A DNA stretch of 64,000 nucleotides from a virus (Duplodnaviria; Caudoviricetes): the IMG/VR virus record IMGVR_UViG_3300042291_001013; one strand, 5' to 3'. Both the position numbers and the translations under genes were made by a program. The notes under the pieces were generated by a model. It was not told where the DNA came from. It did no database searches and saw nothing but the letters and a program-made list of their open reading frames with translations. Below, piece after piece: positions 48,437-49,497 of the stretch. Numbering within the stretch: position 1 is the stretch's first letter; every line of letters begins with the position of its first letter.

Positions 48437-49282
48437 ATGTCACAAACTGCGAACCCGCTAAAACAATATTTTAGACAACCTGCAATCTATGTTAGATTGC
48501 CCAGCAACGGAGAATTCTGGGACGATGGCTCTCTCAACTTGCCAGTCAACAAGGAATTGCCAGTGTTGCCCATGACTGCCATTGACGAAATTACATATCG
48601 TACCCCAGACTCCTTGTTTAACGGATCTGCGGTAACTCGCGTGATTCAAAGCTGTGTACCTGATGTCAAGGATGCTTGGGTAGCCCCTGGCAGCGACATT
48701 CCCACTTTGTTGGTGTCTATTCGTATTGCTAGTTATGGACATGACATGGAGATGGCCAGTACCTGCCCTGAGTGCAACACCAGCGGAGAGTACACAATTG
48801 ATTTGCGAGCAGTACTAGAAGGAATTACCCTGGGCGACTACAAAACACCGTTGCAACACGGTGACTTGGAAATTTCTTTTCAGCCCATGAACTATCGTCA
48901 ACAAAACGATGTGAACCAACAACAGTTTGATCAACAACGCACCATTGTCAATGTACAGAACGATCCTGATCTTGACGACAATGAAAAAATTGCACAACTA
49001 AACCAGGCACTTGAAAACATCACCAAACTCACCGTGGGCGCACTAAAATACAGTGTGGCCAGCATCAAGACTCCCAGTGCCTTGGTTACCGAAACTGCTC
49101 ACATTGAAGAATTTTTGCACAACTGTGATCGCAAACTGTTTACTCAAGTTAGAGAAAAAATTGTAGACTTGAGAGAAAAAGGCGAGTTTAGACCCATTCA
49201 TGTCACTTGTGGCAACTGCAATCATGAATACGATCAGATGTTGAATCTAGACCAAACAAGTTTTTTCGCGCCCGCCTCTTAA
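48437..49282 (+). CDS. gp26: Baseplate hub subunit / tail assembly chaperone
   Basis: Start moved to MSQTANPLKQYFRQP; I..RLPS.G...V.PMTA.DE...TPD.L.NG...I.SC.P...D...LL.SIRIASYG...CP.C...C..C.H...LD..SFF. Confidence 0.8.
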   Translation: MSQTANPLKQYFRQPAIYVRLPSNGEFWDDGSLNLPVNKELPVLPMTAIDEITYRTPDSLFNGSAVTRVIQSCVPDVKDAWVAPGSDIPTLLVSIRIASYGHDMEMASTCPECNTSGEYTIDLRAVLEGITLGDYKTPLQHGDLEISFQPMNYRQQNDVNQQQFDQQRTIVNVQNDPDLDDNEKIAQLNQALENITKLTVGALKYSVASIKTPSALVTETAHIEEFLHNCDRKLFTQVREKIVDLREKGEFRPIHVTCGNCNHEYDQMLNLDQTSFFAPAS

Positions 49283-49308
49283 ATTCTAAGCCTGAAGAAA
49301 TATCTTCA

Positions 49309-49497
49309 ATGGTAGATGCCATGGAGAAAGAGGCCAATAACATCAAGGCACAGTGTCTCAAGATGTCATGGTATCTCCGTGGTGGTGGCACATACGAAGA
49401 CGTGCTGAACATGAGTTACAAAGAACGTACACTTATCAATGAACTCATTAAAGAAAACATGGAAACCACTCAGAAAAGCAAAATGCCACACTTCTAA
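49309..49497 (+). CDS. gp51: gp51-like baseplate hub chaperone segment (possibly reached by -1 frameshift)
   Basis: MSWYLRGG.TYEDVLNMS..ER.LI.E.IKE; frame is open back to the slippery site at 49261-49267. Confidence 0.6.
   Translation: MVDAMEKEANNIKAQCLKMSWYLRGGGTYEDVLNMSYKERTLINELIKENMETTQKSKMPHF

Follow-up and report, generated by a model that had tools for sequence, protein, structure and literature searches.

A conserved TTTTTTC slip site in the gp26-like gene of T4-like phages very probably gives rise to short and long forms of one putative tail assembly chaperone

We examined a 64,000-nucleotide stretch of DNA (the window) from an uncultured freshwater T4-like phage, represented in IMG/VR by record IMGVR_UViG_3300042291_001013, a 64.9-kb fragment estimated to be 19% complete. 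Our subject is the gp26-like gene of this phage and the reading frame behind it. Comparison of related sequences indicates that two proteins, one short and one long, are very probably made from the gene through a -1 slip at a strictly conserved TTTTTTC. A preliminary description of this DNA had proposed such a -1-frameshifted pair of short and long chaperones, and the proposal is supported by the conservation of the heptamer and the open frame, by the existence of natural long forms and by the collinearity of the long product with T4 gp51. Specifically, we consider it likely that a ribosomal -1 frameshift at U_UUU_UUC yields a short chaperone form of 281 amino acids (aa) and a long form of 353 aa. 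The features of the locus are as follows.

48437..49282, + strand: short form, gp26-like baseplate-hub or tail assembly chaperone gene (TAC-N in the literature), 281 aa, PF12322
49261..49267, + strand: slippery heptamer T_TTT_TTC (X_XXY_YYZ) in the 0 frame, AGT TTT TTC = S275 F276 F277
49267..49497, + strand: -1 frame extension, gp51-type tail or TAC-NC specific part, 76 codons and stop
49274..49334, + strand: candidate stimulatory RNA structure with an outer stem of 7 base pairs, starting 6 nucleotides (nt) past the heptamer
49280..49282, + strand: 0-frame stop TAA, four codons past the heptamer, read directly

The gp26-like gene ends in a slippery heptamer followed by an open -1 frame

The list of open reading frames (ORFs) starts the gp26-like gene at TTG 48365, while ATG 48437 gives a protein of 281 aa whose N-terminus (MSQTANPLKQYFRQ) coincides with the N-termini of its homologues. 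There are 4445 homologues, and the nearest 120 are nearly all 280-281 aa long with the same starting methionine. The protein matches the Pfam family PF12322 (T4_baseplate; E 7.4e-15, 55.7 bits against a gathering cut-off of 24.5) over residues 63-277, corresponding to profile positions 42-218 of 219, and the PHROG family phrog_150, 'baseplate hub' (E 4.8e-17). It contains two zinc-ribbon-like cysteine pairs, CPEC at about 110-113 and CGNC at 258-261. Across 10 sequences, T4 gp26 among them, F276 and F277 never vary and C113, C258 and C261 hardly do.

The 3' end of the gene reads CAA ACA AGT TTT TTC GCG CCC GCC TCT TAA. The heptamer T TTT TTC lies at 49261-49267, exactly as first described, and is in frame with the 281-aa ORF. 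Translated from 49267, the -1 frame reads RARLLNSKPEEISSMVDAMEKE... and stays open for 76 codons up to a stop at 49495-49497, running into ATG 49309 as had been claimed. This ATG is codon 15 of the -1 frame and the start that gene callers would use. It had been described as having no convincing Shine-Dalgarno, and the 19 nt upstream of it (gcctgaagaaatatcttca) indeed contain no GGAGG-like Shine-Dalgarno (SD) sequence. The 62-aa ORF beginning there has no match in Pfam or PHROGs. With 277 residues before the shift and 76 after it, the predicted long product has 353 aa rather than the approximately 352 aa given at first. Reading the sequence directly, we found no SD-like element upstream of the heptamer.

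The heptamer and the -1 frame are conserved in all 93 loci

We assembled 93 loci from IMG/VR contigs and from phages Atu_ph07, Phosso, RaK2, 121Q, Munch, PA5oct, KVP40, S-PM2, P-SSM2 and HTVC008M, which together span at least nine deeply diverged lineages with 30-66% protein identity. Searching the phage collection at the DNA level with the window locus returned no match, so that protein searches were needed. Using the -1 peptide as a tblastn query, we found matches in Atu_ph07 (E 8e-9), Phosso and several RaK2-like phages. These matches start at residue 1 of the peptide, upstream of any ATG, and overlap the gp26 ends in the -1 frame, and the same in-frame T_TTT_TTC is present in the matched loci. 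An alignment-driven scan of IMG/VR contributed 80 further loci with 50-66% protein identity.

Conservation of the heptamer and of an open -1 frame among gp26 homologues had been named in the preliminary description as a way to check the slip, and both are found throughout: an in-frame T_TTT_TTY is kept in 93/93 loci, and the -1 frame is open in 93/93. Its open length is exactly 76 codons in every close relative, against 57-77 codons among the distant loci. The sequence NNT TTT TTC G... stands at the gene end in all 86 IMG/VR and phage loci that have the gene end on the contig, and T_TTT_TTC is also present in PA5oct, 121Q, RaK2, P-SSM2, S-PM2 and KVP40. The codon before the heptamer always ends in T, being AGT, AAT, GCT, CAT or ACT in the 86-locus set and AGT, AAT, GCT, CAT, ACT, CGT, TCT or GAT overall. 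The 0-frame stop follows four codons past the heptamer, so that the protein ends in FFxxAS*, in 78 of 85 loci. HTVC008M (locus L099) reads AGT TTT TTT TAA. Here T_TTT_TTT is part of a stretch of eight T, and the 0-frame stop comes immediately behind the heptamer; a stretch this long could support polymerase slippage too.

Conservation of the -1 peptide sets in at residue 1, upstream of any start codon, with R-x-R/S-L-L. Among relatives the first ATG in the -1 frame falls at codon 2, 3, 7, 15, 16, 19, 31, 33 or 37, and in PA5oct none of the 73 codons of this frame is ATG, GTG or TTG. In the stretch from the 0-frame stop to the earliest common ATG, nucleotide entropy at positions 1, 2 and 3 of the -1 codons is 1.26, 0.86 and 1.60, respectively, which is the coding pattern of the -1 frame.

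The FF motif is invariant even in T4 gp26, and two phenylalanine codons are thus expected at the position of the heptamer. Elsewhere in gp26-like genes, phenylalanine is written TTT in 68% of cases, and the codons of the residues preceding FF end in T in 26-49%. From these frequencies, T_TTT_TTY would arise by chance in about 30% of cases per independent lineage, and the observed conservation exceeds this expectation. In Tevenvirinae, whose gp26 has no downstream extension, FF is kept and is written GAG TTC TTT or GAG TTT TTT; the wider Tevenvirinae control set consists of only 7 near-identical loci.

Some phages encode the long form in one uninterrupted frame

An exhaustive HMMER search with the 76-aa extension retrieved 174 proteins, most of which are small called ORFs of 40-98 aa with variable starts. 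Seventeen of the 174 are 319-351 aa long; in these the extension forms the very C-terminal end, after a PF12322 body, and the junction has the form ...F-R-x-K/R-L-I. AlphaFold2 predicts these 17 natural long forms as a single confident unit (predicted local distance difference test score, pLDDT, 89.3; predicted template modelling score, pTM, 0.83), with tail helices at 266-274, 279-308, 313-318 and 321-341. The long-form model had no match in a Foldseek search of the PDB at E <= 0.001, and VIA-align reached at best Z 6.2, with generic helical units.

One locus, L092, which encodes one of the seventeen, contains both versions side by side.

411-2389 of L092: tandem PF12322 paralogues, a short copy of 294 aa directly before a long copy of 351 aa

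The short copy ends in AAT TTT TTC, and its -1 frame stops after one codon. At the junction of the long copy the sequence is AGT TTC AGA (S-F-R), without a T run, as the loss of 2 nt in the T run would give. L092 may represent an intermediate stage linking the slip-site and two-gene arrangements.

By profile search, Atu_ph07, PA5oct, 121Q, RaK2, S-PM2, P-SSM2, HTVC008M and KVP40 have one PF12322 locus each, and T4 has two. These counts amount to a rule: a slip site goes with one gene, and its absence with two. We tentatively propose, while holding it to be somewhat less than an even bet, that the one-gene slip arrangement came first in the PF12322 family and is much its most frequent state, reaching the jumbo phages RaK2, 121Q, PA5oct and Atu_ph07; that the two-gene state of T4 is derived, through duplication and loss of 2 nt from the T run; and that a long-range stem may drive the slip, its 3' partner having moved between two or three positions in the course of evolution.

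The extension corresponds to the C-terminal tail of T4 gp51

In T4, gene 26 lies on the minus strand and is followed by gene 25, whereas gene 51 is transcribed divergently, so that a frameshift from 26 to 51 is impossible in that phage. T4 gp51 consists of a PF12322 domain (residues 1-201, E 3.9e-52) and a C-terminal tail of about 48 aa, while T4 gp26 consists of PF12322 only, and both match the full profile. Judging by these matches, gp26 and gp51 are paralogues, the short and the long version of one protein.

The link between the extension and the gp51 tail is visible by profile-profile comparison only. With hhalign, the extension profile matches the gp51 tail profile with a probability of 84% (E 8e-6), aligning RGGxSYxxxxxLSxxER of the extension with KxxYSLxSIxxMIPxER of gp51. 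Virtual long products are collinear with the gp51 family from end to end, through the junction, with a probability of 93% in global and 68% in local mode. Pairwise BLASTP of the extension against T4 gp51 was not significant, and a plain hidden Markov model (HMM) of the extension searched against six-frame T4 ORFs ranked gp51 top, but with an E-value of 1.9. The -1 peptides of the cyanophages and KVP40 (...YYKINFALMQHHKYSLTELENMMPWEREIY...) plainly resemble the T4 gp51 tail by eye and bridge the extension and the tail, a resemblance that accounts for the GenBank label 'gp51' on their 55-57-aa ORFs.

The preliminary description had taken gp26 and gp51 as the G and T parts of a chaperone, its labels being in line with this GenBank usage. 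The notion of a short and long chaperone pair stands, while the division into parts requires revision: gp51 is a full gp26 paralogue with a tail, and the small ORF matches the tail only. The small ORF thus appears, from these alignments, to be the gp51 tail and not the whole of gp51. Both systems share the PF12322 family and the short and long pair, and the long product of the window is collinear with gp51 including its tail. They differ in that T4 has two divergent genes without the heptamer (GAG TTC TTT GAG), whereas the window phage has one gene with a slip site, and in size, with a body of about 205 aa in T4 versus 277 aa in the window and a tail of about 48 aa versus 76 aa.

In a precomputed Pfam list, the gp51 homologues P0275-P0366 carry PF28602 beside PF12322. 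PF28602, probably a model of the gp51 tail, would be the family in which the extension naturally belongs. The gp51 homologue of Acinetobacter phage Octan (MT409116.1) is annotated 'tape measure protein assembly chaperone', and the chaperone reading has already been adopted by some annotators.

A candidate RNA stem lies downstream of the heptamer

At 6 nt downstream of the heptamer, a spacing within the canonical 5-9 nt for stimulatory structures, GCCUCUU (49274-49280) can pair with AAGAGGC (49328-49334) to form an outer stem that encloses two hairpins, at 49293-49308 and 49309-49322. The minimum free energy of the region is -19.8 kcal/mol (z -2.05). We spotted the stem by eye and then counted it across relatives: a perfect downstream complement of the 6-mer is present in 66 of 76, at two or three positions, mostly 68 or 89 nt from the heptamer start. 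The partner sequences show some covariation, GCCUCC occurring with GGAGGC and GCCUCU with AGAGGC. When columns 26-31 are set against columns 84-89 of alignment A2, 82.9% of cells are paired versus 78.5% in shuffles, a value reached by 0 of 500 shuffles. Pair 31-84 is CG in 39 sequences, UA in 14, UG in 2 and other or unpaired in 20. The second partner site (columns 105-110) is weak alone, with 56.9% of cells paired. From these counts we regard the stem as a good candidate and not as established.

The same GCCUCC/U nucleotides encode the end of the short form and the R-L-L of the long form and make up the 5' arm of the candidate stem, which places three constraints on the same 6-7 nt.

A ribosomal slip is the favoured mechanism

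In the mechanism that we propose, most ribosomes would stop at TAA 49280 and release the short form of 281 aa, which corresponds to T4 gp26. A minority would slip back by one base on U_UUU_UUC (49261-49267) with tRNA-Phe in both the P site (UUU) and the A site (UUC). Both tRNAs would re-pair on UUU UUU, and reading would resume in the -1 frame at CGC (Arg) for 76 codons, giving a 353-aa long form that would be the equivalent of T4 gp51, with a PF12322 body and a small helical tail. The stem 6 nt past the heptamer would probably pause the ribosome and raise the rate of slipping, and the two products may act in the manner of lambda gpG and gpGT.

Several observations weigh against this account. 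The run of six U could yield the long form by RNA polymerase slippage. Neither Pfam nor a Foldseek search of the PDB nor VIA-align gave a sequence or fold link to the lambda gpG/gpGT families, and the Pfam TAC families match neither the gp26-like protein nor the extension. The 64.9-kb record has no PF12322 match besides the gp26-like gene, and given the estimated completeness of this record a second PF12322 gene may lie elsewhere in the phage. As for the stem, RNAalifold found no consensus structure in a diverse alignment of 76 sequences; a single covarying pair, at synonymous sites, supplies most of the support for it; and conserved residues are encoded in both arms (A-S-stop and R-L-L in one, K/Q-E-A in the other).

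The same protein products would result if RNA polymerase added one U, or dropped two, on the T run. In favour of this reading, what is conserved is a homopolymer; the eight T of HTVC008M make a classic substrate for polymerase slippage; and a few percent of long form may suffice. Most loci, however, have six T and then C, rather few T for a bacterial polymerase to slip on efficiently, and the run always stands in X_XXY_YYZ register behind a T-ending codon. The stem, moreover, lies 6 nt downstream, where it is placed to act on the ribosome, whereas hairpins that stimulate polymerase slippage lie upstream. We consider transcriptional slippage unlikely and infer that the shift is ribosomal. A further possibility is that the locus holds two separate genes, with a free 62-aa protein made from ATG 49309 or by re-initiation after the gp26 stop. 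There is an ATG at 49309, GenBank annotates 'gp51' of KVP40 and the cyanophages in this way, the ATG of those phages lies 3-4 codons into the -1 frame, right behind the gp26 stop, where coupling is conceivable, and gene callers yield many such small ORFs. Yet ATG 49309 has no SD sequence before it and sits inside a predicted hairpin, the first ATG shifts from relative to relative and in PA5oct a start codon is missing altogether, while conservation and coding periodicity already extend over the residues upstream of the ATG. Natural fusions and T4 gp51 show the tail working within a PF12322 protein, and two separate genes would leave the invariant T-ending codon and the choice of TTT TTC unexplained. 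We judge this arrangement improbable.

Alternatively, the heptamer could be a by-product of the FF motif, with the -1 frame open by chance or as a decaying remnant. FF is indeed invariant even in T4 gp26, which has no extension, and the short L092 paralogue keeps AAT TTT TTC though its -1 frame stops at once. Against such an origin, Tevenvirinae have FF without the heptamer, the heptamer is accompanied by an open and conserved -1 frame at every one of the 93 loci, and the extension is homologous to the gp51 tail. An absence of recoding is, as far as sequence conservation can tell, already contradicted, and we hold it to be very improbable indeed.

Comparison with known recoding systems and with existing annotation

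Levin et al. 1993 and Xu, Hendrix and Duda 2004 (Mol Cell 16:11) are said to have described lambda gpG/gpGT and the conserved -1 frameshift in tail assembly chaperone genes, and E/E+E' of phage P2 is a further case of such a frameshift. In KVP40 and S-PM2 the order of genes is tube-like gene (phrog_45), gp26, small 'gp51' and large protein; the gp26 gene stands between a tube-like gene and a large protein as G/T does in lambda V-G/T-H, which by analogy this order mirrors. The lambda system differs in its heptamer, G_GGA_AAG versus U_UUU_UUC here, and in that the candidate tape measure gene of the window is divergent and not downstream. In E. coli dnaX, a -1 frameshift takes place at A_AAA_AAG with the help of an upstream SD-like element and a downstream hairpin. 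Common to dnaX and the window are a bacterial-type X_XXY_YYZ site and a downstream RNA structure about 6 nt away, the latter being a candidate in the window. The heptamers differ, the slipping tRNA is that for Lys in dnaX versus Phe here, and the window has no upstream SD-like element. The window stem is also long-range, with a loop of about 47 nt that contains two hairpins and with alternative 3' partners among relatives.

T4 was long the odd one out, as the long-tailed phage with no recognised frameshifted tail chaperone, and the gp26/gp51 pair fills this gap. Loci of the window type show the link directly, since one slip-site gene would do the job of two T4 genes. Because TTTTTTC stands so uniformly behind FF, slippage on U_UUU_UUC could also be studied conveniently at these natural sites in a wide range of hosts.

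Vladimirov, Gautam and Davidson (Virology 2022;566:9-15, doi 10.1016/j.virol.2021.11.003), as cited in PMC10885494 and PMC12846349, identify gp26 and gp51 as the T4-like tail assembly chaperones TAC-N and TAC-NC, a short and long pair. According to the same two citing papers, TAC-N genes of T4-like phages were already known to carry poly-T slip signals, so that the principle, as these papers relay it, has already been published. The title of the 2022 study refers, in the account of the PRFect paper, to separate genes. In the open full-text literature on gp26/gp51 frameshifting we found no paper that describes the slip. The window locus is a new example of the published principle, adding confirmation and breadth and not a new concept.

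The small ORFs recorded as 'gp51 baseplate hub assembly catalyst', namely KVP40.0327, S-PM2 p208 and P-SSM2 PSSM2_015, lie, like the extension of the window, in the -1 frame directly behind gp26, with T_TTT_TTC at the gp26 end, and are homologous to the gp51 tail, as the KVP40 record itself says. They differ in being recorded as separate genes of 55-57 aa. Their position and sequence point to the small 'gp51' of KVP40 and the cyanophages being a C-terminal extension of gp26, as in the window. The records of the cyanophages, KVP40, RaK2, PA5oct, Atu_ph07 and 121Q mis-annotate or omit the long form, which a join annotation would correct. The extension is unannotated in the records of PA5oct (L088 2035-2260) and RaK2 (L090 2023-2240). 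For Atu_ph07 (L001 1495-1731), the annotation holds only a truncated 40-aa ORF from an internal ATG (gp687), and the 121Q and Munch records call the extension a hypothetical protein.

Neighbouring genes and the chaperone role

Two genes on the opposite strand precede the gp26-like gene.

43753-45525, - strand: portal gene of gp20 type, separated from the gp26-like gene by a 949-aa gene
45545..48394, - strand: 949-aa neighbour, candidate tape measure or hub protein with a VanY-like peptidase segment, divergent from the gp26-like gene

The 949-aa protein matches Pfam VanY with an E-value of 1.5e-4, below the cut-off, and residues 766-882 form a PHROG endolysin-type segment. With BLASTP it is weakly collinear with the syntenic RaK2 gene, annotated as tape-measure-like (E 0.004), and with a PA5oct virion protein found by mass spectrometry (E 0.08), and its comparisons with T4 gp29 and with S-PM2p209 were not significant. 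In jumbo phages, as in the window, a large divergent gene lies upstream of the gp26-like gene. The pair had been described as sitting beside the tape measure gene. A large gene does adjoin it, and its identity as a tape measure is that of a candidate, given the weak match to RaK2 and none to gp29. On these comparisons, the 949-aa protein is a possible client of the chaperones. T4 gp26 and gp51 are listed as hub assembly chaperones (Leiman et al. 2010, PMC3004832). Because of family membership and synteny, we infer that the two forms chaperone the tape measure or the hub.

On the other side of the locus, the stop of the extension (TAA, 49495-49497) overlaps the ATG of the next gene (49497-49499) as TAATG, which suggests coupling of that gene to ribosomes reading the extension. 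Its product is a protein of 166 aa that belongs to phrog_28122 and has a weak DUF6875 match, and it is the first of four tightly packed genes extending to 51296.

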